DNA of 63,981 bases, the filler included, from Stramenopiles sp. TOSAG23-6 (lineage: Eukaryota), in NCBI GenBank assembly GCA_900128565.1. It is 3 parts of 3 records of this genome, joined end to end, with 100 filler letters (N's around TTAATTAATTAA, not from the genome) between each part and the next. Parts side by side here need not be neighbours in the genome. Positions count along the whole stretch, not along the records: positions 50,964 to 63,981 come from LT636179.1; 2 more parts are not named here. The stretch is one strand, 5' to 3'. The position numbers and the translations under genes are program-made. The notes below the pieces were generated by a model that did not search any database, was not told the origin of the DNA, and worked only from the letters and a program-made list of their open reading frames with translations. This document shows, piece by piece, positions 1 to 63,981 of this stretch. Each line of letters opens with the position of its first letter. Within the stretch, counting starts at the first letter, position 1.

Positions 1-92
1 TTTGGAAAAATATTTCAAAAAAAAAATCGTTAGGTACAAAATTTCGTACGAAAAAAAAATTATATAAAAAATTGAAAAAAAATAAAACATAC
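1..92 (-). mobile_element. Introner-type intron (partial)
   Basis: Minus strand reads AT|GTATGTTTT...CGTACGAAATTTTGTACCTAAC...GAAATATTTTTCCAAA, truncated at the window edge. Confidence 0.85.
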
Positions 93-4518: not shown

Positions 4519-5646
4519 ATGGGTAGTTCAGTATCAACACCACCTATAAGCAAGGCAACAAAAGATCTCATTGATCCTCTACAAATGACAGGAAAACATG
4601 TAAAAAGATTATATCAAGTGTTTAGAAACGCAGATAACGATAGAACTGGTTCCATTGATTATAACGAATTCTATGAATTAGTCGGTGAACGACAGTCAAT
4701 TTTTGCAGATGAAATATTTCGAATTACTGATCTAGATAACTCAAACAGTCTTGACTTTAATGAGTTCATACATGTACGTTTTCATTATGAATTTCAAATT
4801 TATTTATTTTTCATACGAAATTTTGTACCTAACAAAACAATTTTGAGTGTTGTTTTTTTCACAATACATGTCATTTGTACATTCAGTCTTTTCGGTAAAG
4901 AAGAAATTCTAAAATTCTGTTTTTACATCTTCGATAAGGATAAAAATGGTTATATAGAAAATGAAGAATTGCTTGATTTGGTATCAGTCTTGCACGGAAC
5001 AATGGGTCAAAATCCTAGTGCAAACATCGAGCGGGCGCTGAAAGACTTCGAAGTTCGTTGCGGTAATATGATGGGTCGAAAAAAGGTGACTTTTAAAGAA
5101 TTTGTTTCGTTAAACACTCAAGTACCTCAAATATTTTATCCGGCTTTTAAATTACAGCAATCAATACAAAGAGCTTGTCTTGGCACTAATTTCTGGGATT
5201 CGCGAAAACGTTTACGTAAGGAAGACCGGGATAAACAAAAGAAAGAAAGAGAATGGCTTTCAAAAGCTGCTGATCGGAAACAAACAAAGAAGCAACATTT
5301 AGAGTTGAAAAAACGATTTGGGGTGATTAGGTACCATTTAATGCCTTGGAAATATGATAGGTGGATACAAATTTTGAATGAAGAAGCTGTAAGTGAAGCA
5401 ATGGGTAAGGCGGCTCGAGATCGTTTTACAAAGAATCGTAAAGATAAAGAGAAGAATTATCATAAAGCTGCATTAAATGCCGAAGGCAGAATAAAGATGG
5501 AAAAAGAGGAAAGAAAGAAGCGGAGGGAAAAAGATAGAGAGAGAGAAATGAAATACAAAAAGAGAAAGGAACAAAAAGGCATAATTAAGAATCAAAAAAT
5601 AAAAAGCAAAAAGAAGAAGAAAAAAAAACGAGGTCAATGGGACTAA
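4519..5646 (+). CDS. EF-hand (calcineurin B/NCS-like) protein, one intron 4774-4869
   Basis: MGSSVS myristoylation-like start; EF loops DNDRTGSIDYNEF, DLDNSNSLDFNEF and DKDKNGYIENEEL. Confidence 0.85.
   Translation: MGSSVSTPPISKATKDLIDPLQMTGKHVKRLYQVFRNADNDRTGSIDYNEFYELVGERQSIFADEIFRITDLDNSNSLDFNEFIHVRFHYEFQIYLFFIRNFVPNKTILSVVFFTIHVICTFSLFGKEEILKFCFYIFDKDKNGYIENEELLDLVSVLHGTMGQNPSANIERALKDFEVRCGNMMGRKKVTFKEFVSLNTQVPQIFYPAFKLQQSIQRACLGTNFWDSRKRLRKEDRDKQKKEREWLSKAADRKQTKKQHLELKKRFGVIRYHLMPWKYDRWIQILNEEAVSEAMGKAARDRFTKNRKDKEKNYHKAALNAEGRIKMEKEERKKRREKDREREMKYKKRKEQKGIIKNQKIKSKKKKKKKRGQWD
4774..4869 (+). mobile_element. Introner-type GT-AT intron (96 nt, in frame)
   Basis: CAT|GTACGTTTT...CACAATACAT|GTC. 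Removal gives FNEFIH-VICTF and restores the EF-hand exit helix. Confidence 0.85.
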
Positions 5647-11362: not shown

Positions 11363-11542
11363 GCTAAATTATAGATGTACATGTGCCATCAAATATATTT
11401 ATATTGAAACGAAAAATAAATTAGTAACAATTTAACTTTATATTCATCTGAGGCCTTTGCAAAATTCGAAATTGAAATATTTTTTCTGTACCAAATTTCG
11501 TACTTAAGAAATTTCGAATGAACTGAGTGTTACTTTCTCCAT

Positions 11543-14056: not shown

Positions 14057-15982
14057 ATGCCAAAAGCAAAATATATTCCTAAACTTAGAAGTGGTCGCCG
14101 TGTAGGGGGATCTAGGACACGTTCAGCTCAAAAGAAACTCGATATAGAGAGTAAAAAGGAGGAGGAAGTAGAAGTCAAAAAGAGTTTTTATACGCCAAGT
14201 GTGGCTGCAAAGGAAAGAAAGCGAAAAGAGGCTGAAAATCGAGCTCGTAGAAGACAAAAGATCATTCGTGAAAAGAAACTAAATGCACCTAAAAAGTCCT
14301 ACATAGATTGCCACGGTAAGCATGGAGACGTTAACTTAGGCACACCCAAACCTAATAGTTGGTGGGGTACTCAAATTTCAAAAAAAATGAGTAAACCGAT
14401 GGCAGTACCACGACCTCGACAATTCTTGCGTTGCCGGTGCATTCCTCCCTGTCGTCCTTGGCCAAACTTTGGTCCTTTGTTTGTTTACCCAGGAGAGGAA
14501 ATTAAAGAAAAAAATTACGACGAATATGAGATAGTAAAATATGCAGATCCATTTGCAGAGCAAATTGATGAAGTTACAGATAAACCGAGAGATGAATTAC
14601 AAAAAAATACATCAAATAATAATTCAACGACAGAATTGGCGAAAATCAAAAAAAATACAAAATTAGCGCCTCTTCCTGTGGCTATCCAAAGTCGAGCTGA
14701 ACGATTAAAGAAGGAGATGGATGCAGTTCAAATGGCAGAACGTTTCATTCATGAGAGTAGACTTGGTAATGAGTATGGTGTGATGCAACTAATACGTCAG
14801 AATGTAAATATAGATTGGCAGGGCCGTGATGGTAAAAATGCACTCATGACTGCCGCTCTTCTTGGACACTTGGGCACAGTTCAAATTTTAGTTAAATCTG
14901 GTGCTGATTTGGATCTTGTACGTTTTTCATGATGAATTTCGCATTTAACTTTTTTTGTACCAAATTTTGTAACTAACAAATTTCGATTTTTTGAAATATC
15001 TTTTCAGTGTACATGTAGATATTCAAGATCAGACAGCACTTATACAAGCAGCAGCTCAAGGTCGTTGTGCCACATGCATTTATCTTATCAAAGCTGGTGC
15101 CAAATGTGACAGAAGTGATAGAAATGGTAATACAGTATGTACGTTTTATCATTAATTTTTACCTAAACTTTTTTGTACCAAATGTTGTACCTAAACAAAT
15201 TTCCAATAATAAAAATATTTTTCACAATATATATTCACATTCCCGGGCAAATCAAGATTGTTTAGCAAAAGTTACTGCACTTTTGACTAGGTTAGAAGGC
15301 CGTCGGCGAGAGTCTGCTACATGTGCGTTTCCATCATGAATTTGTTTTTTTGTTTCGTACCAAATTTTGTACCTAACAAATTTTACAAAAAAAATATGTT
15401 TCACAATACATTTGTTCAGAAACATTGGCGAAGGTTGAATGGTCAACGAATACGGAAGGTAATGGTTGCAGCTATTGCAAAAGCAAAAGTAGATCTTCTA
15501 GAAGCTGCAATTAATACACAGCGATGGGAGAGAGGAAGACAAGCAAGGCTTGTGTACGTTTTCATCAGGAATTTCAAAAACAAATTTTACCAAATTTTGT
15601 ACTTAACGAATTTCAAACTTTAAATATTTTTTCACAATACGTGGCTGAGGGATTACGTGAAGAATATAGAAAAAGGGTTAAAGCTCGCTATTACGTTACC
15701 ATTCGTATTCAATCAATCTTTCGAAGACAAAGAGCAACTATGGTTGTATCACAAAGGAGAATTGCATTTAACATGAGTGCATTGAAAATTCAGAGATTAC
15801 AACGTGGTAACCGAGCAAGAAAATATTTTCGGGAACTCTTGACGTTTGATAAGAAACAAAAGCAAGTTGCTCGAAAGAAAGCAGCAACTTTAATGTGTCC
15901 GATTGTTCGTGGTTATTTTGGTCGCCAAAAAATGAAAAAGTTATTTGGTTATGTGTATATCAAAGAAGACGATTGGGTTTGA
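14057..15982 (+). CDS. Ankyrin-repeat + IQ-motif protein, four introns
   Basis: Splicing 14918-15014, 15139-15232, 15323-15411 and 15554-15642 joins the ankyrin repeats (GADLDL-VDIQDQTALIQAAAQG) and IQ motifs (SATFVQKHWR, IRIQSIFR, LKIQRLQRG). Confidence 0.85.
14918..15014 (+). mobile_element. Introner-type GT-AT intron
   Basis: CTT|GTACG...GTACAT|GTA restores the ankyrin consensus spacing. The nearby TTTCAG is out of frame. Confidence 0.85.
15139..15232 (+). mobile_element. Introner-type GT-AT intron
   Basis: AT|GTACG...CACAATATAT|; core TGTACCTAAAC. Confidence 0.75.
15323..15411 (+). mobile_element. Introner-type GT-AT intron
   Basis: AT|GTGCG...CACAATACAT|; restores the IQ motif. Confidence 0.85.
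15554..15642 (+). mobile_element. Introner with GT duplication (GT-GT, or GT-AC if shifted 2 nt)
   Basis: CTTGT|GTACG...CAATACGT|GGCT gives RLVAEGLREE. Confidence 0.8.
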
Positions 15983-22700: not shown

Positions 22701-23099
22701 GCAAAAATAGGTTTAATTGAACGTCGTTTTTGTGGTGTGAATGGTGCTAATTTTAGACAATACATGCTTCGTATACCAAGAAATTCCTCATTTTGGACGA
22801 ATTCTTCTATACTACAATCTTCATGTACGTTTTTCTCATAACCAATTTTCGAATCAAGAATATTTTTTTAATATGTTTTATTTTTTTTTTNTATGAANTT
22901 NTTTTTNATAACGAAATTTTGTACCTAACAAATTTAAATATTTTTTTTTGCAATATTTTTCCAAAATACATCTTCCTTTAATTACAAAACTAGCATGCTT
23001 ACGTTTCATGATGTTTTAAATGGATTTCAGAAAACAATGAAAATACTTCGTCTTCATTTGGAAAAAAGAGATACAAAATTAGGTCAAAAGTCCGATTAA
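19795..23099 (+). CDS. Large coiled-coil repeat protein, intron 22825-22971
   Basis: ATG at 19795; repeated KYQSDIDAL.KAMQDQK units; frameshift at an n (21754); last exon ends TAA at 23099. Confidence 0.75.
20950..21790 (+). repeat. Coding tandem repeats, approx. 120-135 bp unit
   Basis: Near-identical copies of CAATCTGATATTGATGCTCTT...AAAGCTATGCAAGATCAAAAAC. Confidence 0.85.
22825..22971 (+). mobile_element. Introner-type GT-AT intron
   Basis: AT|GTACG...CCAAAATACAT|; the reading frame continues to a stop codon. Confidence 0.8.
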
Positions 23100-23554
23100 T
23101 AATGTTTGATTGGTTTGTTTTATGGGAAATTATTATTGAAAGAGAAAAAAGTAAAAGAAATTATGGAAAAAAAAATGTTAGGTACGAAATTTACTACGAA
23201 AAAAAAAAGTAAAAGAAAGTAATGTATAGGAGTATAAAAAAAAGATTCAAAAAAATAAACTACTATATAAATTTAAAACTACATATTTTCAATCATATAA
23301 ATTAGGTTATTTATAAAGACAAATAATAGAAATTTCGTAAATTGCGTATTTTACTTGACAATTTAAATTTGTTGATTGTTGATGTCAACAATGTCGAGTA
23401 CGATTATTCATCGAGATTCGTTAGGGTTAGGGTTTCCGGCCAATAAAAAAAGTAAACACAATCAATCAAATCGAAATCGACCGTAGTCGAAGAGTCTCAA
23501 GAGTCAAGACTTAGTCTCTTGTTGAATCCTCAAAATCCTTTCTTGTTGAATATA

Positions 23555-37254: not shown

Positions 37255-37745
37255 TGAAAACAAATTATAAAGACTTTAATGAAATGACTTGTAATATTAA
37301 TATTATTGCATGTACAAAAGTTTGGGATGCCATTTTAATCTATAATTATATAATTATATAATTATATAATTATATGTGACCGAAAATATATTCAATATTG
37401 AATATTCCTTGAATGTCATTTTCTTCGACGTGATTTTTGACAGCTACCTGACACACACGTGGCACTTTTTCAAATATTCAATTTTCAGCAAGAGCATTGG
37501 AATGTTTTTCATACGAAGTTTTGTACCTAATCATTTGCTACTACTAAAGATTCCGAGAGCTGTCAAAAACACAAGTTAGCTACTACAAAGATTCCGAGAG
37601 AGATTCCTTCCTTGACAAAGCCAAGTATTAGACCTTAGTACGCCAAATAACAAGGGGATTACCCTTGTAGGAATCAAGTCAAAAGTGCAATTGGACTACT
37701 TGAAACACTATATGATACATACCGAGAGTACAAAAAGTAACAGCA

Positions 37746-39140
37746 ATGTCACGTACAATTAATATATTTGTATTTCTTTTTGCAATCTTATATTCCGGCA
37801 TTTCTCCTTGTTGCTCCGCAAATCAAAGAAGAGCAAGAAGGGCTGTACATAAAACTGCGCTTAAAGTTGCAAAACGTAATATCCGTCACAAACAGAATGC
37901 ACTTCTTGGTTCTCCTCGAATGAATGGTCAAACGGTTGCTTCCCCTAGCCCTAGAGTAAATAATAGTGTTGATAAAATTCTCTCTCCACATTCTACAAGT
38001 AAAAAGAATAATTTTCTATCGAAACTTGCCGTAAAATTTCATAAACGAAAACGTCAAAAGAAACGTATTGCTTCTCCTCGTTCTCATCGATCTCCTCGAT
38101 CTCCTCGATCTCCTCGATCTCCTAGACTGACAAATATTTTACCTACGAAAGTAGATGATACTACTGAAATAGATACATTTACTCATCAAAATCAAAACAG
38201 TGGTGTTGATGATCAAAACCAAACCAGTGTAAGTTATCCCAAAAACATTGAAGAAACATCTCAACTACATCCAAATGACGTCATTGTTGAAAATGTACCA
38301 GTAGTACTACCATCAACAACAACAACAACAACTGCAATGACTAATAAAGACCTAAAAAATGAATTGGAGATACAGCCGAAAGACGTTGTAGTGACAAGTC
38401 ATTCAAATATTGTTCGTGTACGTTTTTTATCATGATTTTTTTTTATATGAAATTTCATACCTAACATTTTTTTTATCATGATTTTTTTTTATATGAAATT
38501 TCGTACCTAACAACACTTTTTTTTTAAAGTGTTTTATCAAGTTTTCATCATTTGATTTTGTTTTCATAGACAATTTCGTACCTAACGTATTTCAAATAAT
38601 ACAAGTATTTCTTTTCACGATACATAATAATGGGGACGTCACTCCCCCAATAACAGAACAAAATGATGAAAAAAATGTAGGTTTTTTTTTTTACTATGAA
38701 TTGTTTTTTTCATACGAAATTTTGTACCTAACAATTTTTTTTAGAATTTTTTTTTGAAATATTTTTTTACAATATTTGATGTTCAATCGAATCACAAAAA
38801 TTCAAATACAACATTTTGGAGTCAAAACAACATTATTTATTTTGGTATAGGTGGTGGTTCTATTCTATTGATTAGTATATATGTTTTTTTTCCTACAAAA
38901 TATTTTGGTAAAAATAATTTTTACCATTTTTTTTTTTATAGAAAATTTCATACCTAACGATTTTTTTACTAACAAAAAAAAAAAAAAAAAAAATATTTTT
39001 CACAATACAAAACTATAACTGTATTTGTTTTGATGCATTCTAATCAAATTAAAAAAGAAAATCGGATTTTATTGGAAAAAAGTAAAGAATTGCGTTTGTC
39101 AGTGACTAATGAAGGTACTGAAGAGTATGCAACTGTATAG
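37746..39140 (+). CDS. Signal-peptide + C-terminal TM protein, three introns
   Basis: Introns 38418-38625, 38677-38777 and 38879-39010 rebuild a TM helix IIYFGIGGGSILLISITITVFVLM; SPR repeats. Confidence 0.7.
38418..38625 (+). mobile_element. Introner with triplicated core, GT-AT
   Basis: CGT|GTACG...three TACCTAAC cores...CACGATACAT|. Confidence 0.75.
38677..38777 (+). mobile_element. Introner, GT-TT
   Basis: AAT|GTAGG...ACAATATTT|GAT keeps the frame. Confidence 0.65.
38879..39010 (+). mobile_element. Introner, AT-AA (non-canonical in either candidate register)
   Basis: AT|ATATGTTTT...CACAATACAA|A lies within the TM helix. Confidence 0.6.
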
Positions 39141-40923: not shown

Positions 40924-42311
40924 TTATATTCTTTTAAAAATTGTTGCTGTTTTACTACTTCCACTACCCTTCATTGAAATTCCTTTTTTACACTTTTTAC
41001 TTTTAAATTTATCTGAAGTCTCAATGAAACCAACAAGACCTGAATCTCCTCTTCCTTTATCTACAACTGCAATGCCATTTAATGTGTCACATTCAATACA
41101 TAGTATAGCTATATGTTCCACTAATTCTGTTGGCATGTATTGTGAAAAAAATATTTTTTATTGTAGTAAAAAAAATATGTACGTAACGTATGGAATTTTC
41201 TATCAAAACAAAAAACAAAAAACAAAAAAATTCTAAATTCTAAATTCATCATGAAAAAAACATACATCCCATCTGAGAAAATATATACGTGAGTTGTTCC
41301 TTGTGGCAATTCTGTATATTCCATCAAATCTCCCTGTGTAAACTTAATAGTACATCTTTTCTTAGGAGTTGGGTTTCCATTATTTTTTTCTACTTTCGTC
41401 TTTGAATGCTCAACATTGACAGAGTTCAATTCTTTTCTAATTATTTTTTCTACTTTAGCCTTTGAAAAATCAACTTCAACAGATTTCAATTCAATACCCA
41501 TGGAAAAACTATCAACCGTTGAGAGACCAGGTAAAATAGATGCTGCTATAACAGCATCACCAGTACCAGATCCTAAATCAACGAAACCTTGAATTTTATT
41601 CTCTTCAACTTTATTTTGTTTGTTACATGGAAGATGATCCAATCCAAGAGCTTCAAATATTGTTTTAAAACTTCTTGTAGAAAGTGTCCCAGACATACCT
41701 TGTTCAAGAGATGAAAATCTGCGCTTTCTTGATTTCCTTGACGGTGCATTAGATGTATTTGGTTTTGAGTGTCTTGCATCACTTTTGTTTACATTGAGTT
41801 CTATTATATTTTTTAGATATTTCATATCTGATTTTTTTGTAATATTATAATAACGACACCACGATTCTATATTTTTATGAACTATGGCTTTTGTCTTTGA
41901 ATCTGTTTTTAGTGCTTCATGAATTGCATAATCAAAGTATGTGCCACTATGCCATTTATCACCAGATGTGATTGTAGACCTTTTACGCCAAAATTTCTTA
42001 AAATTTGGACAAAATGGTAAAAGAGACAAAGACGGTACATCTTGAATTGTTGATTCGTAATCTTCATTGCAAGTAGATGTTCGATGGTAGTGGTGAAGCC
42101 ACTGAACACGATAGAATACTTCGTTATCAGGGACATCCTTGTTCCGTAACTCTGCATTGAAGCGAGCAAACTTTTCATCCTGTGAACCTGTCTCTAGCTT
42201 ATCTTCTATAATTGCTGGCCAGATAGATGTTCGTGGACTGGAGTATGCTTTCCCTTTACCATATCGAACAAACACAACTTGTCCAATGACAAAAGGATCT
42301 TTTGGGGCCAT
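40924..42311 (-). CDS. PWWP-like domain + DOT1-like SAM methyltransferase, intron 41135-41265
   Basis: FVIGQVVFVRY...IWPAII; FVDLGSGTG, GIEL and THVYIFSDG-MPTELVEHI. Confidence 0.75.
41135..41265 (-). mobile_element. Introner-type GT-AT intron
   Basis: AT|GTATG...CACAATACAT|G. Confidence 0.8.
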
Positions 42312-45035: not shown

Positions 45036-47082
45036 ATGGAGATACAGGACTTGCCAAATCGCATTACCTTGGAAGATATGCGTGATATACCTGATGTAAG
45101 TGGTTGGGATATTTCAGATGAAGACATTAGTGTTCGGATAGTAGAAAAGATGGAACCTCTCCCAACAAAAGAGTTTCGGCTTTCCCACGGTCCAATATGG
45201 GATGAAGTAGTGGCTGCGTTTGAGAGTTATAATGATGTAGAGCGACGGAATTGGATTTTAGAGTTAAATATTGATCGTACTATTCATTTTGATACTTCAA
45301 AGACCGTAAATGATGAGTCTAGTCAAGTGGCAAAAGAAGCTTTCTCAAGAAGTTATATAATCGATCCTTGGTTATGGAGGTGTAGAAAACTTCAAAAACT
45401 TCGTCTTTGTATATCACCGGTAGGTACTTTAAAGAATGTAAAACCTTGGATTTGTATGTTAAAAAGTTTACAACATTTGGATTTATCTGGAAATGGTATA
45501 GAAGTCTTACCTGAGCATTTGAGTCGTTTGATTCAACTTCGAAGTCTTGACGTTTCGAATAATCATTTGACTACACTTCCCACAGAGCTGAAGTCATTAA
45601 CCTCACTTGTTTCTCTGGATGTTCGTACAAACAAATTAACGTCTCTTGTACCTATTCCATATAGTTTAGTTTGTTTACATGCTGATTATAATCATTTGTC
45701 TTCAATTGTTGACATCTTCAACTGTGAATTAAACAATACAAATGATACAAATGATACAAATGATAAAAAAGATAAAAAAGATCAAATACAATCATTTCGG
45801 ATAGAAACACTTACTCTTACGGGTAATATGTTAACAAATATACCAAGTGAAATTAGTCATTGTACGTCTTTAGTTACATTCAAACTATCTGAAAATAAGA
45901 TTGAAAATATGTATGTTTTTTTTTTTTCAATTTTTTATCTAAATATTTTTTTTATAGTAAATTTTGTACCTAACAAATTTTCCAAAAAAAAAAAATTTCA
46001 CAATATATTTGTTTTGAACTTGGCCTTTTAAGTAAGAAATTAAGACATGTTGATTTTCGTAATAATTTGATACAAGATAAAAAAATACTTAAAATGGCAA
46101 ATAAAGCATCTTTGAATGGTGCAAGAGATTTAGTTGTGTTTTTGAAATTTTTAGCAAAATCGATAAAAAAAAATCAAAAAAACAAAAAAAATAAAAAAAA
46201 TAATACAAAAAAAAAAGTAGAACAACACGAAATCACTCCTGAACAAATAGAACAACGTAAACAAAAAGAACACGAAATATTACTATTACAGTTAGCGCGT
46301 GAAAAAGCTCAAGAAATGGAAAGAATTAAACGTAAAAAAGAAAAAATCGAATTACAAAATAAAATGAGTCAACGTAAAAAAGAAAAAAAAGAAGAAAATG
46401 ATCTCAAAGAAAAACAAATCAAACATCGTCGAAATCTTCGCCAAGAAAATCGTACGAAACAAATGTATGAATTATTTTTTTGAAAATTCAAAATTTTTTT
46501 TTTTATAGTAAATTTTGTACCTAACAAATTTTTTTAGAATTTTTTTTGAAATATTTTTTCAAAATTTATACAGTTATTAGCTGAGAAGAAAAAGGAATGG
46601 AATGCTCTTTCTAAAAAAGAACAAACTCAAATTTTAGATGTACAACAAAAAAAAGAGGAAGAAACAAAAATGATTAATGAAATGTATGTTTTTTCATTAT
46701 GAATTTTTTTTNTTTTTTTTTTTTTTTTTCGTACGAAATTTTGTACCTAAACCTAAAAGATTTTTTTTTTTTTTTGAAATATTGTCCAAATATAAATGAT
46801 TGAAGAGGCACGAAAACAAGCTGCTATATCTCAAGCTGAAAAAGTTCAATTAAAACGTTTAGCAAAAGAAAAAGAATTAAAACAATCAAAAGATAAACAT
46901 AAAAAACCATTATATATAGTACAACCAAGATATTCTGGTATTGTTACAATGTTTGATTCATCTAGAGGTTTTGGTTTTATTGAAATAAAACACGAAATCA
47001 AAAAAACAGATAGCAGTACAAAAGATTTGTCAAATACAAATTTATTAGGTAGAGAATTGTATAACAAAAATGAATTGACTTT

Positions 47083-47631: not shown

Positions 47632-49399
47632 ATGATGAAACTAAGCATCTTTTTGATAATGCATTTTTTTGCCGTTGTCGTTGCGAGTGGATGCAAGCAG
47701 TGTAATCGATCCCTCACGTGCCTCCCTAGGTCTGCGGAACGGTTTGAGAACGTTGGACTTGTGGAAAAAAGAGGGAAATGGGGTGTTTGGAGTAAACGTA
47801 ATTTCTTCATGGAAGAATGTCCGTGTCCCGATATTGTTCATGGAAGAAGCGAATGCTTATATGTTTATAATACGACACCTTCTGAAGAATTAAGGGGAGT
47901 TTTTATCATTAACAATTCTGACCAAATCACGATGGAAATGTCCAAAAAGTCTCGTAAACATTTACTATCGCGGCTGTCTCCTCGAAAACATGTCATCACT
48001 ATTATCTCTGATGAATTTATTTCTACACATGGAGACGAGACAAATAAAAAACTTGAATTATCATTCGAAAATGATGCGTTGAAACAAAATTTTGTTTCAG
48101 AAATGAACAGTAAATTATCACTCACAGAGGAAGAAAGAGAGACGTGTAAAGTTTTAGATGCACAACCATATGAACATAATCGCTTACAGAAGGATTTGTA
48201 TGCCCGATGTATGCATGATGAGACATTTCTTTATGCCATGGCAAAAGGTAATAAGTTTACACGTGCTAATTCTATACTATATAAAGATATTTGTGATTTG
48301 GTGATTGGTCACGTTCCACAAAATATTGAGCTCTGCTCAGAAAAGATTAGAAAGAACATAGAATTCTGTATGGAGCAATACCAAAAGAATCATGGCATAT
48401 TTAGTAAACTTTTACCCGAGATGCGAGAACAAATTTACGCCGAAGAAACAAAGAAAGATAAAAAAAACAGTGCTATAATATTCGAAGAACAATACAAAAA
48501 ATATAAGTCTTTAACATGTTCAACACAAAATTTTAAAATTGCTCGACAAGCAGTTAAAAACGATGGTTTACTACTTGATAAAGCAGATAAATTCTTTACA
48601 AAATGCGGCCGTCAAGGTCAAAGATTTTTGAATAGTGTGCAGAATTCATCTCTAACTTTCAGTGGATATAAAGTAATCGAATATGAAGCTGTTGAAAATA
48701 ACCCAGAGGCAATACAATTTGTCCATCCTGATTGTTCTAATTTTTACGAGAGATTAGCTGGCAAGGCGATTCGATGGAGTTACAAAAGTATAAAACATGT
48801 GTATCGATATAGTAGTTGTCCAGACCAATGTGAAAGTCTGATGAATAATTTGTTTCATATAGAAAGTCATCATATGGCTTGGGCTTATCAAAAGTTATCT
48901 TTTCCTTTATATGCATTGAAACATATCAAAGGCTCCCCTTGTGAGAAACATCTAAGAGCCATGTATGTTTATATGAATTTCTAATTTAATATTTTTTCAT
49001 ACGAAATTTTGTACCTAACGAATTTTTTTTTGAAATATTTTTTCACAATACATTTATGAGAAACATCTAAGAGCCATTTATGAAAGCCAAGGAATAAACT
49101 GCCCAATTGATTACTCGCATTCATCTTATCCAAATGAACCAAAACTACAAAAAACGTTTTATGAAAAAGTAATTGATTATTCAATTGAAGAGGAAAAAAA
49201 AGAAAAAAAAATCAAAAATCAAAAACAAAAACAAAAACAAAAACAAAACACATATATTTCATATATTCCAAAGGATGTGTATGAAAAAATTTGGCATTGC
49301 ATGTTATCTAACAATCCTACACGTATCAGAGATATGAACCCAAAAGTGTATAAAGAATTTTACAAAACAAAATTGAAATTATACCGAACATACTTATGA
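47632..49399 (+). CDS. Predicted secreted protein with DUF4116-like repeats, intron 48963-49053
   Basis: Signal peptide; AVKNDGLLL and AVENNPEAIQFV; the second exon is open to TGA at 49399. Confidence 0.65.
48963..49053 (+). mobile_element. Introner-type GT-AT intron with adjacent empty-site copy
   Basis: Interrupts the first of two tandem 24-bp units GAGAAACATCTAAGAGCCATTTAT. Confidence 0.88.
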
Positions 49400-49571: not shown

Positions 49572-50750
49572 TTATATACGTAATATGCTCTCAAGGTGTT
49601 GCTGGTCATCACCTAGATTCCAAATTTCATTCATTTTATAGAGAGGGTTTGTGTGCTCAACAATTTTAAGAAATATGTTCCAAAATCCCATTTGAAGCAA
49701 AATGTCGAATCTGCAAAAAGAGTTCATCCTCCTCCTCCTCCTCCTCCTCTTTAGTATTAATGTATTTTGGAAAAATATTTCAAAAAAAAATTCGTTAGGT
49801 ACAAAATTTCGTACGAATAAAAAATTCGATTTTTTTGTAAAAAAAAAAAATAAAACATACATTGATCTAGCTAGCCTATATACTAGAATCGTATCTTCTT
49901 TTAGCATTACTTGTATAGATCTTTTTACAACATTTTCTTTATCATAAAGATTATCTATATATTAAACAAGAAAGTCAATCAATTCAATAATATGGTAACA
50001 AAGAATATCCTACCTCTTTCTTCTCTGTTTTCCTTTACAATATTGTATCTGTCGCTCATAACAGATTATTACCCTTCTTCTTCTTCATGTGTATTTAACA
50101 TTGAACTGATGTAGCTAGAACTTTACCTTCATCTTCTCTCTGTGTAGTTGACAGTTTCATTCGATGTTTTTCCCAACCTGTTTTTGCAATTCTTTCAAGT
50201 TTTGTTTTCATTAATGTCCATTGATCTACTTTCACAAATGTACTAAATATAAATAAGAAACTTTTATGATAATCATCAATATTTTTTTGCCCTTTTGAGA
50301 TACATTTTTTCATTTTTTCTATTTCTGTATTTATTTTTTGTACATGTATTATAACATAATATAGCATTTCATCAAAAAATAAATTTAAAATTCATAATGG
50401 AAAATAAACATTTGAAAAAAATTTAAAAAAAAATTTTGAAATGCAAAAGGAAAAACAAACATCTTTTTTTTTCATTTTCTTCTTTTTCTTTTTTTTTCTT
50501 GGACCTTTTTTTGCAACATTTATATTTTTCAGTAATTCGTTTTTCAAAACACGAAATCTTTCTTTAAAAGGAAACACGAGATCTACTAAATTTGTTGGGA
50601 GATTTTCAACATATATATATTTCAAGATTTTACGAATATCAGCTATACTAAAAATTCCAGGAAATTTCGTATATATATTTTCAAAATATATTTTATATGA
50701 AAATATTTCAAAATAATGTTTTTTGTTAGTTATGAAAAATATACAAACAC
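49572..50750 (-). CDS. Hypothetical multi-exon protein, 5' partial
   Basis: Several minus-strand ORF pieces; clear introner at 49760-49860; other junctions uncertain. Confidence 0.45.
49760..49860 (-). mobile_element. Introner-type GT-AT intron
   Basis: AT|GTATG...CGTACGAAATTTTGTACCTAAC...CCAAAATACAT|. Confidence 0.8.
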
Positions 50751-50863: not shown

Positions 50864-50963
50864 NNNNNNNNNNNNNNNNNNNNNNNNNNNNNNNNNNNNN
50901 NNNNNNNTTAATTAATTAANNNNNNNNNNNNNNNNNNNNNNNNNNNNNNNNNNNNNNNNNNNN
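50864..50963. other. Artificial contig-join linker
   Basis: N run + TTAATTAATTAA + N run. Confidence 0.95.
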
Positions 50964-51056
50964 TTTTTTTACAAAAAAATCGAATTTTTTTTTCGTACGA
51001 AATTTTGTACCTAACAAAAAAATTTTTTTTTTTTGAAATATTTTTCCAAAATACAT

Positions 51057-51574
51057 GGTACTCCAATTCTTGATATAAAACCCTACTTACCTAAATTTGA
51101 TGCGTTACCTAATACAATGACATATACACCAGATTGGGTGACGAATGAAGAAAATGCTATTCCACGTATTGTTACGATAACGGCTAAAGCAATGAAACAA
51201 TTATCTTCTGGAGATATTCAAAAATGTATTCAATCAAAAAATAGTGTTTTTACCAATGGTATTGATGAGTGGTTAAATGCTTTACGTCAAGTATTAGAAA
51301 TGGATGTGATGTGAGTCGAAAACCTTCTTTAAGTAAGGAATATTGTATACATTTTGATGGTATTAAGGCAAAATATCAAATTCTTCCGACAAATATGGAT
51401 GGAAATATTGATGAAAATATAGAAAATATTCATAAAAATATGGATAAAAATCATAAAAATCATAAAAATATGGATAAAAATCATAAAAATATTAATCGTG
51501 GTACAACAAAAGTTTTTTCATTTTCTGTCATTGGTCAAAAATTAAAAAGTAGAACACCTTTTTTCAAAACATAA
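51057..51574 (+). CDS. TRMO: TrmO/TsaA tRNA methyltransferase, C-terminal exon (frameshifted)
   Basis: GTPILDIKPYLP..D...PDWV follows an introner 3' end (AATACAT at 51056). A 5-bp GATGT duplication at about 51303-51312 shifts the frame. Confidence 0.75.
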
Positions 51575-54993: not shown

Positions 54994-55848
54994 TTATTTT
55001 CTTCGAACTTTTTGGAATTTTTTATTTGACTTTAAACCACTCCTGTCCTTCATCATCCATTCTCTTGCTTGTTGAAGTGTTTCTGGCATTGGATCATTTC
55101 TAGATTTTCTTAAGTGTAACCATTCATGCAATACTTCCATGAATTTTGTAAAAATATTTTCAAAACATTGTTTTTTTTTTGTTAGGTATGAAATTTTGTA
55201 TATAAAAATACATATGAAATTTGATATAAACGTGAAACCGATGACTTACATTGTTTGAAATTGAACTAATAATTCGTTCACAGTACTTTGTTCCACACCA
55301 ACTGTATTTGCAACTCTTTTCTTTGTCTTTCCTTTTATTCCGCGCATATCACTTAACTCACTTGGTGTAAATGCGCTCAAAATGTCCAATTGTTGTTTGA
55401 CTTGTTTAACTTCTTCTGTATTACTGACTCCAGGTAACTTCATACGCCACTTTTGATCTTCCAATGATTGTTCAATTTCATCTTTCCAATGTGCAAGAGT
55501 TAAAGTTTTAACGTTCAAAAGAGACACAATTTGTTGTTGAAATTTTTCATCCATTTTCTTTTCACGACGAGAATCGACTTTACTTTTTAGTTTTCCCGCC
55601 CAACCAGTAAATACACCGGTACTAAATGAACTACTTTGCATTGTATGTATGTATTGTATCATATGGGAATCAGATACGCGTTGAGAATGGCATTGATTGA
55701 TTTGTGAAAAATCTTTCGACAAAGTAAAGGTGACTAGGGAACGACTAGTCACTGCGGATGGGGATAGAACACATCGTTGTACTCTTGTTTGAATACTCTT
55801 TTGTACATTAAACAATTGAGACTTTGAATACAGTAACCTATTCAACAT
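54994..55848 (-). CDS. Mitochondrion-targeted protein with Ffh/SRP54 M-domain-like region, intron 55139-55249
   Basis: Transit-peptide-like N-terminus; ILSAFTPSEL...KTKKRVANTVGVEQSTVNELLVQFQTM-EVLHEWL. Confidence 0.65.
55139..55249 (-). mobile_element. Introner-type GT-AT intron
   Basis: AT|GTAAGT (perfect U2 donor)...CATACCTAAC...AAATTCAT|G. Confidence 0.82.
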
Positions 55849-57130: not shown

Positions 57131-57655
57131 TTATCTCAGTATATTTTTATCTGAATTTGTATTTTCATGAAAAATAAATAATATCCAAATATGAGAAAAT
57201 GTCTCGACACCAAGAAAAGTAGCTGGAGAGACATTGGAAGAAAAATGTAAAATGGCTCTTGTTTTTGGTGTCAATAGAGGTTGTCTTGGAGTACCTTGAC
57301 AGTCACTAAAACAGGATTTAATTTGTCCAATTGGACGTATTAAATAAGGCACTGTTGCGTCTTTTTTTGGGGTTGATTTGGCTATTATCTTTGAGATCTT
57401 TGAGTGTTTATTCATTGTAGTTCTAGGGTAAAGTATATGCTTCGTTGCCGCCTTGTTTTCTTGATGATGGATACTTTCTTTTATCTTTGTTGTCCTTTTA
57501 TTCTGCTTTGCGTTCTTTTTTGCTTTCCATTTTGCACGATGTTGTTGTAGTGAACGAATATATTTCTTACGCTCTCTTTGAACAGATATGATAAAGAATA
57601 AAGAAGCAAATGATACACCCGCAAGAAACGTTAAAACACTCCTTTGAAGTGACAT
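57131..57655 (-). CDS. TRMO: TrmO/TsaA N-terminal half with TM anchor, truncated
   Basis: IRPIGQIKSCF..CQGTPRQP...GVETFSHIWILFIFHENTN, then a stop codon. The ATRSPHRPN motif is absent. Confidence 0.75.
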   Translation of the reverse strand: MSLQRSVLTFLAGVSFASLFFIISVQRERKKYIRSLQQHRAKWKAKKNAKQNKRTTKIKESIHHQENKAATKHILYPRTTMNKHSKISKIIAKSTPKKDATVPYLIRPIGQIKSCFSDCQGTPRQPLLTPKTRAILHFSSNVSPATFLGVETFSHIWILFIFHENTNSDKNILR

Positions 57656-58006
57656 GATTGAATAGTCACTATGAATATACTAGTACTGTATTCAACAGTG
57701 ACTCTGGGAGTATATTACACACAAGTAGTAGTAGTTGTATTAATATGTGTTAGTAGGAAGGAGGTAGGTTAGGCCAAGTAAAAAGTGACGTCGACTGACT
57801 CATTTTTCGCGAAATTGAGAAATTGAGAAATTGTAAAGCAAGTTTGTGCCACAAAATAAGAAGGAAAAAAAGTCAAATCGTTCAAATCGTTCAAATCGTA
57901 TCCAAAATTCAATTGGATACGATTCAGAAAAAGGAATCTCGACAAAGAAAAAGATTTACTGATCAAAACACATCTAATTCAAAACAAGAAGAAAACAAAA
58001 CGTACA

Positions 58007-60302: not shown

Positions 60303-62236
60303 TTAATCGGATACAATTTCCCAATCGTTGGCTTCTACTTTACAATTTATCGGACGCCGAGGTGTGATTTCACCGAATGCATCAAATGACGTTTCTTTTC
60401 CTTGTTTTGTATTGTGTGTAGTAGTAGTAGACGTATTCACTTGTATTTGTGTCAAATCTTGTAATTGTTTAAATTGTTGAATATTATTCTGAGTCTTATT
60501 TTGAACATTATTTTTATCATTATTCTGAAGATTTNTACGAATTTCATTNGTATTTTTTGATTCAATTGTACTAAAATCAATAGCAACACCATCAATAATC
60601 TCATCTGTTAATGTTGATATATTTGACATATTTGTATGTCCACTGGCACCTAATTCAACACTATTGCTTGTATTAGGGTGAGGGTGAAGGTTTGGGTTAC
60701 GTCGAGTTGTTTCAACTGGTAATGGAAAAGGGACTAAAAATGGATGGGAGAGTAATTCTTTCGCTGTTGGTCTATCTCCAGGATTTCTTTGAAAACATTT
60801 CTGAAGGAACTGTATTGGTAAAAAAATATATCATGAAATATTGTTTTGTTAGGTATACAATTTTCATACTNAANTTTTTTTTTNAAAAATNTTGAATAGG
60901 ACATTTCAAACAATAAAGGTTAGGGTTAGAGTTAGGTACATCTTTGGCATCTATACTTAAATGATTCGGTAGAGGAGGACATGTATTTTGGAAAAATATT
61001 TCAAAAAAAAAAAATGTTAGGTACAAAATTTCGTACGAAAAAATAATTCGAATTTGAAAAAAAATTAATCATACATGTTTCTCCTTGTGATGTGAATGTC
61101 TTTTTTTATAGTACCAGTTTTGTGGCACTTCTTTTCCATGTTTTTTTTCGTTTGAATTGTAATAGTCTCCATCATGTATTTTGGAAAAATATTTAAAAAA
61201 AAAAACTTTAAATTTGTTAGGTACAAAATTTTTATAAAAAAATAAATTCGATTTTTTTTTTTTTTTTTTTTTAATAAAACATACATAGATTTCTTTCTCA
61301 GACCACATATTTTCAACCCAGCCCTGAAATCCCAAAGGTTTGGGGTGATAATATCGTCCCCTGCAAGTCTGTGGTTCATTCCAAGCCATACTAGCAATGT
61401 ATTGTGAAAAAATATTTAGTATTGTTGTAAAAAAAATCGTAAGGTACATATTTTTCTATAAAAAAAATTCAAATGTAAAAGTTAGGTACAAAATTTTCTA
61501 TAAAAAAAATTCAAATTTAAAAGTTGAAAACGTACATACAATCTGTCCCACCATTTCCATCAGGAGACGTACATTTCTTAGAATTACAATATTCATAATT
61601 CTTTCCCCTTTTATCCTTATCTTTCTTGCAACATGTGTATGCTGAATGTTTCATTAAGTCCGGCAGAGGTCTTACTGTAAATCCGTTTTCACAAGTCTTA
61701 GGCTCATTCCAGTTGGGATGGGCACAACAGTCAGTTCCACCCTTTCCGTCTGGGCTTGTACAGGCATCAAAAGTACATTTTGGCCCCTTACAACATGTAT
61801 AAAAGCAGCCGCGTAGCTCTTCATTGTATGTGCACTTCTTCTTTTGTTTCTCTTTTGCTGGTCTTGTCTTCACTTTGTAGCCTGATTTACACGTCTTTGC
61901 TTCTCCCCAACCCACTGACGCAATACAATCTGTCCCTCCCCTTCCATTTGGAGACGTACATGCTGATTCTGTACAATGTCGACCATCCNGTTTACAACAA
62001 GTATAAAAAATACTTGGTAATATCTCTACATCATATCCCTTTTTACAAGTTCTGGCTTCACCCCATTCTTTCGGCTTTGCACAGCAATCAGTACCAAAAA
62101 GACCATCAGTACTTGTGCAAGCTGAATTATCCCTTACTCCGTTTTTCTTACATGTATACCAACAGCCATCCGATGATATTATGTCCGCGGATACCACTGA
62201 AATTATAGAAATGAATAATGATACTTTGTTATTCAT
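60303..62236 (-). CDS. Secreted Cys-rich repeat protein, at least four introns
   Basis: Signal peptide; four YTCC...CTSPDGxGGTDC(C/I)A..W.E.KTC units. Introns at 61397-61535, 61174-61284, 60981-61074 and approx. 60810-60890; the 3' part has n bases and a probable homopolymer error. Confidence 0.72.
60981..61074 (-). mobile_element. Introner-type GT-AT intron
   Basis: CAT|GTATG...CCAAAATACAT|GT. Confidence 0.8.
61174..61284 (-). mobile_element. Introner-type GT-AT intron
   Basis: TAT|GTATG...CCAAAATACAT|GAT. Confidence 0.8.
61397..61535 (-). mobile_element. Introner-type GT-AT intron, duplicated core
   Basis: GATTGTAT|GTACG...CACAATACAT|TGCT; an intron-free paralogous repeat lies at about 61915-61940. 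Confidence 0.88.
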
Positions 62237-62561
62237 TTTCTTTGAAACAAATTCTTACCGGTTGTAGTTTACAAATAGAACAAATAGAACACCGACCTGT
62301 GTTTTGATTTGACAGAAAAAAAAATTCTTAGGAGATTTTTGGATTTGGATGAGATTTCGTGTTTCGAACTTTGTTCAAAGTCTTTGAAATTGAAATAGTG
62401 TTTTTCATTTCGACATCATCATCATCATCATGAATTGATCATCATCATTGTGAAAACTCTTGTGTGTTTTTATTTATTAAAAATTGTTGGAAATTCTCTA
62501 GATTCTTCATCACAATTACTCCTAAGCAAAGCAGAGTTTACATTCATTAATTTGAGCCATT

Positions 62562-63895
62562 ATGTTTCCGATTCGAAATGCTGCTTTGAATTTGCAAAGT
62601 GCTACTGCAAATAGATTGTATTGCACCTCTCGGTACTTTTCTTCTGCAGCCTCGAAGCGAGACAAAAAAAAGTTATTCTCAAAGATTCTGATTGCCAACA
62701 GGGGCGAAATTAGTTGTCGTGTCATTGAAACGGCGCGCAAGTTAGGTATCAAAACTGTCGCAATTTATTCTGAACCAGACGCAGATGCAAAACACGTGCT
62801 GATGGCGGATGAGAGTTCTTGTGTTGGTCCTGCTGCATCATCTGAAAGTTATTTAAACATCAATCGTATTATGGAAGTTATCAAAGAAACAGGGGCCGAT
62901 GCGGTCCACCCTGGTTATGGTTTTCTTTCTGAAAATGCTGAATTTGCTAAAGCCCTTGCTAAAGCTGGTGTTGAGTTTATCGGACCAAATGTACGTTTTA
63001 TTTTTTTTTTAAACAAAAAATCGATTTTTTTTTCGTACGAAATTTTGTACCTAAGAAATTTAAGTTTTTTTTTTTGAATATTTTTCCAAAATACATGCCC
63101 ACGGTATACTCTCCATGGGTGACAAAATTGAGAGTATGAGGATTGCCGAAAAAGCAGGTGTAAGTTGTGCTCCACGTTTCGATGGAGAATGTCCTACTGT
63201 TGAGCGTGCGATTGAAATAACAAAAGAGATTGGTGAAAAACTTGGGAATGATGGATGTATTTTGGAATGAATTTCTAATTTAAGTTTTTTTTTCGTACGA
63301 AATTTCGTACCTAACAATTTTTTTTAGATTTTTTTTGAAATATTTTTTCACAACACATATCCCATTATAATGAAAGCTAGTGCTGGAGGAGGTGGTAAAG
63401 GCATGCGAGTCGCTTGGAATGAAAGTGAGCTTGTTGAAGGGTTTCATCTTGCACGTGAAGAAGCTGCTTCATCATTTGGAGATGACCGCATGCTGATACA
63501 ACATTTTGTATGCCCAACGGATGGTAGACATATTGAAATTCAATTAATTGGTGATAAACATGGAAATTATGCTGCTTTTCCAGAACGGGAGTGTTCTCTT
63601 CAAAGACGCAATCAAAAAGTATTGGAAGAATGTATGTTTTTTTTTTTTTTCAATTTCGAATTTATATTTCGTACGAAATTTTGTACCTAACAAAATTTTT
63701 TGAAAAATATTTTTTCACAATACATCTCCGTCTGTTTTGCTTACAAAAGAAACACGAAAAAAAATGCAAGCACAAGCTGTTCAACTTGCAAAATCGGTGG
63801 GTTACTTTTCTGCTGGTACAGTAGAATTTTTATGTGATTATGACCAAAACTTTTACTTCCTTGAAATGAATACTCGATTGCAAGTGGAACACCCG
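62562..63895 (+). CDS. Biotin carboxylase subunit (propionyl-/methylcrotonyl-CoA carboxylase alpha), mitochondrial, 3' partial
   Basis: [48 protein letters not shown] and [13 protein letters not shown]; four introns. Confidence 0.93.
62991..63096 (+). mobile_element. Introner-type GT-AT intron
   Basis: Gives [15 protein letters not shown]; both internal AGs are out of frame. Confidence 0.9.
63257..63358 (+). mobile_element. Introner-type GT-AT intron
   Basis: Gives the conserved G-YPIIMKAS. Confidence 0.9.
63632..63725 (+). mobile_element. Introner-type GT-AT intron
   Basis: Gives the conserved QKVLEE-SPS; the intron contains no AG at all. Confidence 0.92.
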
Positions 63896-63921
63896 GTATG
63901 TTCTTTACTTCAAATTTCACT

Positions 63922-63981
<60 letters not shown>

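Follow-up and report, generated by a model that had tools for sequence, protein, structure and literature searches.

Introners are transposon-like elements that create introns and are frequent in aquatic protists (PMC9860276, PMC12130899, PMC11282704). In the excerpts of the literature cited throughout, the introns of Fritillaria borealis are described as mostly non-canonical, species-specific and derived from miniature inverted-repeat transposable elements (MITEs), with their removal attributed to a U2 spliceosome that has probably adapted to them (Henriet et al. 2019, as reviewed in PMC11282704). Polarella is also listed among the groups with a mass gain of transposon-like non-canonical introns, and AT-AC introns make up a tiny minority in known genomes (PMC11282704). 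We analyzed 63,981 nucleotides of DNA (the window) from Stramenopiles sp. TOSAG23-6 (assembly GCA_900128565.1), consisting of three parts of three records joined end to end with filler between them, in which a short AT-rich insert interrupts many genes, among them one for a propionyl-CoA carboxylase (PCC) alpha-like protein. We found that nearly all introns here are a single introner-like family that brings its own ends. We conclude that the inserts are a recently multiplied family that is probably removed from pre-mRNA by the major spliceosome as GT-AT introns, that is, introns that begin with GT and end with AT.

No feature of spliceosomal introns is more constant than the 3′ AG, which in solved spliceosomes is recognized through contacts with the branch adenosine and with the intron's first base. 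To describe the departure from it, we focused on the gene that starts at 62562 on the plus strand and encodes the biotin carboxylase (BC) part of a mitochondrial PCC-alpha-like protein, whose best solved matches are the human and bacterial PCC alpha chains. The BC reading frame is broken by three inserts, and a fourth interruption begins at 63896. Exon 1 (62562..62990) runs from the ATG to ..FIGPN, encodes 143 amino acids and aligns to residues 49-167 of human PCCA (7ybu_A). It is followed by a 106-nt insert in phase 0 (62991..63096; aat/GTACGT..ATACAT/g, with slashes marking the proposed boundaries), which contains a branch-like GTACCTAAG, matches the family profile described below at E 1.7e-17 and falls between residues 102 and 103 of 8sgx_S. 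Exon 2 and one further base (63097..63256), placed by the reading frame and by alignment to a related protein, P0001, precede a 102-nt insert in phase 1 (63257..63358; gat/GTATTT..ACACAT/a; profile E 1e-18), in which an AG lies 13 nt past the branch-like A and is out of frame. Exon 3 and one further base (63359..63631) align to 7ybu_A 215-302 and precede a 94-nt insert, also in phase 1 (63632..63725; aat/GTATGT..ATACAT/c; profile E 5e-19), that contains no AG at all and lies between 7ybu_A residues 302 and 304. Exon 4 (63726..63895; SPSVLL..LQVEHP) aligns to 7ybu_A from residue 304, and the 5′ part of a fourth insert (63896..63981; ccg/GTATGTTC..), preceded by CG and not AT, is cut at the window end.

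The homologues fix these junctions closely. Translation reads FIGPN up to the first insert, a split codon (t/at) into YPIIMK across the second, and LEE, a split codon (t/ct) and SPS across the third. In 7ybu_A, exon 1 ends at residue 167, the second amino acid of exon 2 is residue 169, and the split codon between exons 3 and 4 is residue 303, so that no residue is gained or lost at junctions 1 and 3 relative to the solved PCC chains. The closest relative in a collection of 5.8 billion proteins, P0001 (719 amino acids), is 79% identical over exon 1 and gapless at all three junctions, where it reads ..IEFIGPNAHAILSMGDK.. and ..KVLEESPSVLL..; the best match to exon 3 among proteins of similar length is 84% identical. 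Junction 2 adjoins a 7-amino-acid insertion common only to this gene and P0001, and P0001 alone supports that junction. We also considered internal and downstream AG acceptors and rejected them, as they are out of frame or cost conserved residues. In-frame AGs occur solely within the downstream exons, at 63132 for intron 1 and at 63376 and 63391 for intron 2, with none for intron 3. The BC introns therefore cannot use an AG, because the homologues are colinear, the in-frame AGs would remove conserved residues and intron 3 lacks an AG. With these alignments, we conclude that exact in-frame removal of the three BC inserts is required and that it would have to proceed without a usable AG. A first-pass annotation of this DNA had claimed that the introns in 62991-63725 break the 3′ AG rule, and P0001 and the PCC structures bear out that the inserts are real, exact and without a usable AG. 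It had also stated that they can only be removed as GT..CAT. The exclusion of AG stands, but removal as AT..AC or TG..CA would yield the same mRNA in all three BC introns.

To place these inserts in context, candidates across the window were phased by hand from three-frame displays, and their coordinates, phases, flanking open reading frames (ORFs) and alternative AGs were recomputed by script. The census comprises 34 complete candidate introns, which occur in all three phases and in unrelated genes. Their 3′ ends are AT in 28, AG in three, TT in two and GT in one, where 28 is an upper bound, inflated by up to about five, since AT was used as a criterion for some 3′ ends. The 5′ ends are GT in 32, GC in one and AT in one. 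Counted by position over the 34 introns, the donor has G at +1 in 33, T at +2 in 33, A at +3 in 32, a pyrimidine at +4 in 32, G at +5 in 30 and T at +6 in 32, and the 3′ end has T at -1 in 31, A at -2 in 31, C at -3 in 24 and A at -4 in 29. The upstream exon ends with T in 32 and has A at -2 in 26, and the downstream exon begins with G in 17. CCTAAC occurs in 23 of the 34, with a median distance of 40 nt to the 3′ end, and T runs follow it; the consensus of this branch-like motif is TACCTAAC, which we take to resemble the yeast branch box. Thus a GTRNGT donor and a branch-like site before a pyrimidine tract, both U2-type features, are present, and the 3′ YAG is not. A scan of all other GTA[CTA]GT sites in the window found no further clear intron, a search that weak donors could escape.

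Retention of the intron would break the frame in 33 of the 34 cases, the exception being the EF-hand gene copy at 4774-4869. As a control for phase, we took 17 copies with ends set from the profile alone, defined the upstream frame as the longest ORF and moved the acceptor by 0, +1 or +2. In 13 of 17 copies the unshifted acceptor opened the longest ORF downstream, where chance would give about 6 (binomial tail about 3e-4). Junctions set by homology and not by ORF length are the three in the BC gene and one at 61535-61397, with weaker support of this kind for the AG-ending intron of a kinase-like gene. The first-pass annotation had counted about 33 introns, most ending in AT and two in AG. The dominance of AT holds at 28 of 34, and the AG ends number three. 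AT ends in other genes, as it had reported, were found in the EF-hand, ankyrin-IQ, leucine-rich repeat (LRR) and methyltransferase introns, and its description of donors and branch-like motif as U2-type in look agrees with GTAYGT at +1 to +6 in about 30-33 of 34. Its "mass use" of AT ends is correct in that many introns have them, but these introns are really one repeated family, with 32 of 34 on one profile.

That profile was built from ten copies, and the 32 introns match it at E<0.01, with the ten seeds matching by construction. The same profile gives 71 matches at E<10 within the window. In its short form the family consensus is exon-AT/GTAYGTTTT..TTCGTACGAAATTTYGTACCTAAC..CAMAATACAT/, and in full exon-AT/GTAYGTTTT, then C or A, a T-rich part that often contains ATGAATTTCRAATTTA, then ..TTTCGTACGAAATTTYGTACCTAAC.., a T run and ..GAAATATTTTTYCAMAATACAT/. 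The introns have a median length of 105.5 nt (range 89-208) and a median GC content of 19%, and pairwise identity among the 24 copies of at most 115 nt has a median of 66% and a maximum of 90%. With up to one mismatch allowed, TTCGTACGAAAT has 27 matches against 0.42 expected and GTACCTAAC has 52 against 7.05 expected. Family copies interrupt the PCC alpha, EF-hand, ankyrin-IQ, S15 peptidase, CHAT, LRR, DUF4116, DOT1-like, UvrD-like and Cys-rich genes. The three AG-ending introns (30089-30279, 31131-31338 and 60939-60810) also match the family profile. We also noted that the family core contains a perfect 12-nt palindrome, TTTCGTACGAAA, just 5′ of the branch-like motif (for example at 63030-63041, 63290-63301 and 63666-63677), which forms a small hairpin in several folds.

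The family was also found outside this assembly. A scan of JGI contigs with a 19-nt core gave four loci, with a full copy (profile positions 1-97) on one metagenome contig, L003. There it lies within an ORF, in phase and in sense, as ..caaacAT/GTATGTTTT..CACAATACAT/gg... A full copy on an independent contig means that the element, including its terminal T, is no artefact of this assembly. A miscalled terminal base was rejected, since the same T occurs in about 30 copies as well as on L003. Among contigs of prokaryote genomes the same core gave one locus, which consists of the core only and was taken as chance.

Partial core matches also lie outside the phased ORFs, in intergenic or possible untranslated (UTR) sequence, at 11466-11512 (+), 23168-23206 (-), 33867-33893 (+) and 37503-37535 (+). 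The stretch 33844-33970 lies upstream of an RRM gene and has ..AAATATCTGCAG as its last bases; it is a possible 5′-UTR intron. Interstitial telomere-type repeats, (TTAGGG)2 or (CCCTAA)2-4, occur at ten places (8908, 11673, 11862, 13548, 23421, 30685, 30712-30735, 31771, 32082 and 42657), in introns, in intergenic DNA and within ORFs; CCTAAC is a substring of the C-strand repeat.

The element has at its start a donor of yeast-like form (/GTAYGTTTT), and then, in order, a core with a palindrome, the branch-like TACCTAAC, a T-rich tract and a conserved 3′ CAMAATACAT/. We propose that the major spliceosome would cleave between the exon and the GT and again directly behind the terminal AT, leaving U and not G as the last intron base, and the few copies whose last base has turned to G would be spliced as ordinary GT-AG introns. 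The organism would either tolerate the 3′ terminus supplied by the element or have become adapted to it, and the AT end of one family would account for the departure of almost every intron here from the AG rule. The splicing itself, its register and any change in the spliceosome, such as the first-pass annotation had proposed, are what we infer from the DNA. All 34 complete copies, five partial copies and the L003 copy are in sense to the ORF that they interrupt, which fits strand-specific recognition at the RNA level and is hard to reconcile with excision at the DNA level. Sequence words from a 9.9-kb stretch of the window occur in 11 RNA runs, up to 23% of them in the best, a polyA seawater metatranscriptome, which indicates that the organism is expressed in seawater samples. 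This 0.23 share about equals the fraction of the probe taken up by the single-exon RRM gene (34091-36460) and thus would be silent on splicing. A search of the whole window against Rfam found nothing at gathering scores and no small nuclear RNA (snRNA), and within 60900-63900 only a weak snoRNA-like match (E 0.58). A broader proposal, to which we would give an even chance, is that the major spliceosome of a free-living marine protist routinely performs the second step on ..ACAU/, with G(+1) pairing with U(-1) and with ends like those of group II introns (GUAYG..AU). One introner family would then have supplied nearly all introns, and the AG rule would have been replaced genome-wide, with the 5′ and branch sites remaining canonical.

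Several results weigh against removal by the major spliceosome as GT-AT introns. Four of the 17 copies failed the phase control, and the copy at 31494-31687 misses the flanking frames by one or two bases. For about five introns (24753-24854, 30905-31015, 46465-46569, 46684-46797 and 27697-27595) the 3′ end was picked as AT among in-phase options. The intron search was seeded by family motifs and strong donors, so that weak-donor, non-family introns may be missed. No transcript-derived protein of the same species that crosses a BC junction was found in the 5.8-billion-protein collection with exon 1 and exon 3 as queries, and a 38-nt exon probe had no match among the JGI contigs. Transposition is not demonstrated, as no target-site duplication is detectable beyond the shared AT. 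The remaining points concern the register of the cut. The same AT stands at the exon end and at the intron end, so GT-AT, TG-CA and AT-AC cuts give an identical mRNA in 21 of 34 introns. We know of no documented second-step pairing of G(+1) with a 3′ terminal U, and A(+1) with C(-1) as the first and last bases reportedly works in the second step (Parker and Siliciano 1993). Finally, the intron at 24257-24362 keeps both termini if read as AT..AC and is GC..TT otherwise, which is the less tidy account; for the asparagine or isoleucine that distinguishes the two in GLSYVGI[N/I]AWAAV, no homologue was found at E<=1e-10.

The strongest rival explanation, which we consider unlikely, is that the same family is cut as /ATGTAYGT..AATAC/, making these U2-type AT-AC introns on a genomic scale. 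The exon ends with AT in 25 of 34 introns, and its last two bases equal those of the intron in 23 of 34 (AT in 21, GT in one, AG in one), with at least one base in common in 31 of 34. The BC borders illustrate this: ..AAAT/GTACG..ATACAT/G, ..GGAT/GTATT..CACAT/A and ..GAAT/GTATG..TACAT/C. Because the joined product is identical in those 21 introns, neither mRNA nor protein homology decides the register there, and the phrase "only GT..CAT" is too strong. The termini ATGTA..TACAT also form a perfect 5-nt palindrome, and A(+1) and C(-1) are known to be a compatible pair. To distinguish between the two registers, we considered the nine introns that lack an upstream AT (TT, GT, CT, GT, AG, TC, TT, GT, GT). 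All nine keep GT, eight have GTAYGT or a close variant, seven end in AT, and in all nine the frames are open on both sides. This favors GT-AT, since an intron start at the upstream AT would leave no consistent first dinucleotide, and it argues against AT-AC that these introns keep a GTAYGT-type donor and phase. AC stands at -4/-3 in 22 of 34 introns and AT at -2/-1 in 28 of 34, a comparison partly biased by the choice of ends. Moreover, GTAYGT lies in the exact register where U1 and U6 read a canonical donor.

Introns of the minor spliceosome (U12-type) have the donor ATATCCTT or GTATCCTT and TCCTTAAC at 10-26 nt from the 3′ end. We rejected U12-type introns, because the donor here is (AT)GTAYGTTTT, the branch-like motif is TACCTAAC and the spacing is wrong; ATATCCTT is missing, and the median distance of 40 nt between the branch-like motif and the 3′ end is outside the 10-26 nt of U12 introns. 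Taken together, these observations suggest that the cut falls before GT and after the terminal AT, a placement that we regard as fairly probable.

A second rival, which we judge very unlikely, is an excision that is not, or only partly, spliceosomal and is guided by pairing of the ends AUGUA and UACAU, with cut sites staggered by 2 nt, a mechanism that has been put forward for euglenid and hemistasiid diplonemid non-conventional introns. The minimum-energy fold joins the exon AU and the intron 5′ end with the 3′ end in four of six copies, and known classes of non-canonical introns pair their ends (PMC12621601; PMC11282704). The terminal helix is just 5-6 bp, and the overall stability of the folds is near that of shuffled sequences (z -0.5 to -2.8, with one at +0.65). 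Conservation of GTAYGT and of TACCTAAC at yeast-like spacing is what a U2-type spliceosome needs, and non-conventional introns lack these signals.

More doubtful still is elimination at the DNA level, in the manner of internal eliminated sequences (IESs), by precise excision from somatic DNA with one flanking AT left behind. Paramecium IESs are short and AT-rich, their ends are inverted and a direct repeat of 2 nt borders them, and the inserts have this ciliate-like form (for the IES concept, see the excerpt of 10.64898/2026.07.09.736142). DNA excision needs no strand bias, yet the 34 complete and five partial copies are all in sense. The repeat is AT, in contrast to the TA of IESs, both the assembled DNA and the independent metagenome contig contain the inserts, and the ORFs are long under the standard code, with no hint of a ciliate code. 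That the inserts are never removed, being dead transposon insertions in pseudogenes or artefacts of assembly or amplification, is scarcely credible. In its favor, N runs, linkers and at least one probable misjoin mark the assembly as a draft, and one copy (31494-31687) is out of phase. Against it, more than 30 insertions are all in sense, 13 of 17 were in phase in the blind control, conserved proteins have undamaged exons around the inserts, as in PCC alpha (79% identical to its relative over exon 1), and the same family has the same configuration on an independent contig.

We also asked how the family of putative GT-AT introns spread. A permutation analysis for target-site duplications in the manner of Gozashti et al. 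found that matches between exon tails and intron tails are no better than those of shuffled pairs (P 0.09-0.88). A 21-nt direct repeat, TGAGAAACATCTAAGAGCCAT, flanks the intron at 48963-49053 (positions 48942-48962 and 49057-49077) and doubles eight codons (EKHLRAIY twice) of a DUF4116 protein, which suggests an insertion event at the DNA level, at least there. No flanking repeat of at least 8 nt was found at the other introns of the census. Sense-only copies at AT/G-like sites would also fit reverse splicing, and the spread presumably occurred by transposition or by reverse splicing. According to the excerpted text of Gozashti et al. 2022, target-site duplication in families of the 'AGgy..ag' type is indistinguishable from insertion-site preference and was classed as 'ambiguous' (PMC9860276). 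The present family, whose exon and intron tails agree in nothing more than the common consensus, would fall into the same class.

The remaining members of the census are given here by gene. All lie on the plus strand unless noted. At the window start, the 5′ part of a family intron in a DEAD-box gene (1..92, minus strand; tat/GTATGT..) is cut by the window edge. The EF-hand gene intron (4774..4869; cat/GTACGT..ATACAT/g) is 96 nt long, in phase 0 and placed by profile and phase; it has no in-frame stop, and its retention would add 32 residues without truncation. The ankyrin-IQ gene has four introns. The first (14918..15014; ctt/GTACGT..GTACAT/g) has TT upstream and an internal TTTTCAG that gives the wrong frame. 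The second (15139..15232; tat/GTACGT..ATATAT/a) is in phase 1 and was placed by phase, and the third (15323..15411; cat/GTGCGT..ATACAT/t), also in phase 1, is followed 8 nt downstream by an AG that would create TAA. The fourth (15554..15642; tgt/GTACGT..ATACGT/g), placed by phase, ends in GT, as does its upstream exon. A 147-nt intron in phase 1 follows at 22825..22971 (cat/GTACGT..ATACAT/c; profile and phase).

Five introns interrupt the S15-peptidase gene. Intron a (24257..24362; aat/GCACGT..ATACTT/g) is GC..TT and was placed by phase. Introns b (24501..24623; cat/GTTTGT..ATACAT/g; phase 0) and d (24956..25056; tat/GTATGT..ATACAT/g; phase 2) were placed by profile and phase. Intron c (24753..24854; gct/GTATTT..TTTCAT/a) is without a profile match, and its 3′ end was picked by phase. 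Intron e (25225..25329; aat/ATACGT..ATCTAT/g) is AT..AT, and an internal TTTCAG would lead to a stop. The 5′ parts of two family introns meet the first join between records, at 25395..25473 (cat/GTATGT..) and, on the minus strand, at 25574..25626 (cat/GTATGT..). The joins at 25474-25573 and 50864-50963 each consist of 44 N, TTAATTAATTAA and 44 N, and a truncated family intron abuts each join on either side. A UvrD-like gene has an intron on the minus strand (27595..27697; agt/GTACGT..TTATAT/a) whose 3′ end was picked by phase.

The CHAT/P-loop gene has six introns. Intron 1 (30089..30279; cat/GTATGT..GTATAG/g) ends in AG and has a family interior with two cores. Introns 2 (30905..31015; agt/GTACTT..AAATAT/a) and 3 (31131..31338; cag/GTATGT..ATTAAG/g, with an AG end) were placed by phase. 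Intron 4 (31494..31687; cat/GTACGT..ATACAT/g), set by its family ends, is the 194-nt copy that is out of phase: its consensus ends are perfect, yet 192 or 195 nt would be needed, and homopolymer runs of more than 20 nt lie inside it. The misfit may stem from an error in the sequence of the small exon that follows, or the structure of the gene may not have been recognized. Introns 5 (31754..31873; ttc/GTATGT..AAACAT/a) and 6 (32072..32178; att/GTATGT..TTACAT/t) have TC and TT upstream, respectively, and were placed by phase, the latter without a profile match.

Two introns follow at 38418..38625 (cgt/GTACGT..ATACAT/a), a 208-nt insert with three core copies placed by phase, and at 38677..38777 (aat/GTAGGT..ATATTT/g), which ends in TT and for which an AT end 2 nt upstream would give another open frame. 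The DOT1-like methyltransferase gene intron is on the minus strand (41135..41265; gat/GTATGT..ATACAT/g; profile and phase). In the LRR gene, intron 1 (45911..46008; tat/GTATGT..ATATAT/t) was placed by phase, intron 2 (46465..46569; aat/GTATGA..ATTTAT/a) has an ACAG 4 nt downstream that is out of phase, and the 3′ end of intron 3 (46684..46797; aat/GTATGT..ATAAAT/g) was picked by phase. The DUF4116 gene intron with the 21-nt flanking direct repeat (48963..49053; cat/GTATGT..ATACAT/t) and a minus-strand intron with short ORFs on either side (49760..49860; aat/GTATGT..ATACAT/t) were both placed by profile and phase.

The last part of the window, from 50,964 onward (LT636179.1), opens with the 3′ part of a family intron cut at the join (50964..51056; ..CCAAAATACAT/ggtactcca) before a TrmO-like exon, GTPILDIKPY. 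Two parts of a TrmO_N methyltransferase domain are found on different strands with some 6 kb between them, the N-terminal one (profile 1-50) at 57134-57679 (-) and the C-terminal one (profile 102-116) at 51057-51101 (+), and these are either two genes or a misjoin or inversion of the draft assembly. On the minus strand, a family copy after an SRP54 M-domain exon (55139..55249; aat/GTAAGT..ATTCAT/g) may instead follow a stop codon (atg taa), and its gene model is uncertain. Also on the minus strand is the kinase-like gene intron (60810..60939; gat/GTACCT..ATACAG/t), which ends in AG; the join reads ..LSIDAKD/FLQKCFQRNP, and the next exon matches Pkinase profile positions 237-263. Two further minus-strand copies beside the kinase-like exon have uncertain gene models, namely 60981..61074 (cat/GTATGA..ATACAT/g), which is followed by seven codons and then a stop, or by another frame, and 61174..61284 (tat/GTATGT..ATACAT/g), in phase 0. 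The stretch 60306-60980 (-) encodes only the last part of a protein-kinase domain (..PPLPNHLSIDAKD/FLQKCFQRNPGDRPTAKELLSHPF) directly downstream of the Cys-rich gene, leaving no room for the rest, which could mean a chimeric assembly or a fragmentary gene.

The Cys-rich repeat gene intron, on the minus strand (61397..61535; tat/GTACGT..ATACAT/t), was placed by paralogous repeats: once joined, the sequence reads GGTDC[I]ASMAWNEPQTC, in agreement with GGTDCIASVGWGEAKTC and GGTDCCAHPNWNEPKTC, two repeats of the same protein that no intron interrupts. The ORF at 61520-62254 (-) contains four Cys-rich units of the form CTSPxGxGGTDC(C/I)Axxx W(G/N)E(A/P)xTCxxG(Y/F) and is without a Pfam match.

If the GT-AT reading is true, about four in five introns would end in AU next to a textbook donor and branch site, a natural experiment on the second step of splicing that would reveal which protein or snRNA changes permit an exception to AG. 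The family would further provide a clear example of mobile introns that force their own splice signal on a host, and would tie introner gain to the evolution of the spliceosome. Confirmation in RNA would establish an unusual splicing rule. Standard gene callers with a fixed AG requirement will yield broken models for most genes with several exons, both in this organism and in its relatives, and marine single-cell and metagenome protein catalogues may be systematically truncated for such lineages.

In the excerpts of the literature searched, the phrase 'GT-AT introns' was not found, and GT-AT appeared only as a rare minor-intron subtype and as one rarely spliced Giardia intron. The excerpts on stramenopile single-cell genomes and on marine stramenopile group 4 (MAST-4) contained no report of such introns. 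Canonical donor and branch signals with a near-uniform change from G to T at the last base are, within these excerpts, described in none of the lineages covered. AT-AC introns, whether U12-type or the rare U2-type, are like the present family in having no AG end, and the AT..AC register is formally open to 21 of 34 introns; they are unlike it in that the introns here show neither the U12 donor and branch consensus nor the U12 spacing. Group II introns begin with 5′ GUGYG and end with AY 3′. The GUAYG start and A-pyrimidine end of the family mirror this ribozyme consensus, but a 100-nt AT-rich element is too small for six domains, and the window has no Rfam match at gathering scores.

The non-conventional introns of euglenids and hemistasiid diplonemids share non-canonical ends, end pairing and border repeats that resemble target-site duplications (PMC12621601, PMC11282704). 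They are without conserved terminal dinucleotides or a polypyrimidine tract, whereas GTAYGT, CCTAAC and T runs are kept here and end pairing is short (PMC12621601, PMC11282704). In Amoebophrya, likewise a marine protist, more than 60% of introns are non-canonical and repeated, with ends like terminal inverted repeats and target-site duplications, but their boundaries vary, the repeats are 3-5 nt and U1 is reported missing, in contrast to the one GTAYGT donor and one dominant 3′ end found here (PMC7789003, PMC11282704). Fritillaria is similar in that non-canonical, transposon-like introns are the majority; its ends are diverse, with AG-AC and AG-AT commonest, and the 5′ GT is lost, whereas here the 5′ and branch sites are canonical and the last base alone is altered (PMC11282704).

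The introner families in the cited excerpts are GY-AG, unlike the present one, in which 28 of 34 candidate introns end in AT. A 2025 introner survey discarded families with unfamiliar splice sites unless they were supported by RNA (PMC12130899). Since introner surveys, as excerpted, use annotated introns and one of them drops odd ends, an AT-ending family would probably have been missed, although the supplementary tables of these surveys could list one. In other respects the family resembles the introners of Micromonas, Aureococcus, dinoflagellates, fungi and others, which are many near-identical, short introns that are AT-rich compared with exons, lie in unrelated genes and carry their own splice signals (PMC9860276, PMC11282704). 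The 'ATgt..at' layout found here is formally the same as their 'AGgy..ag' (PMC9860276).

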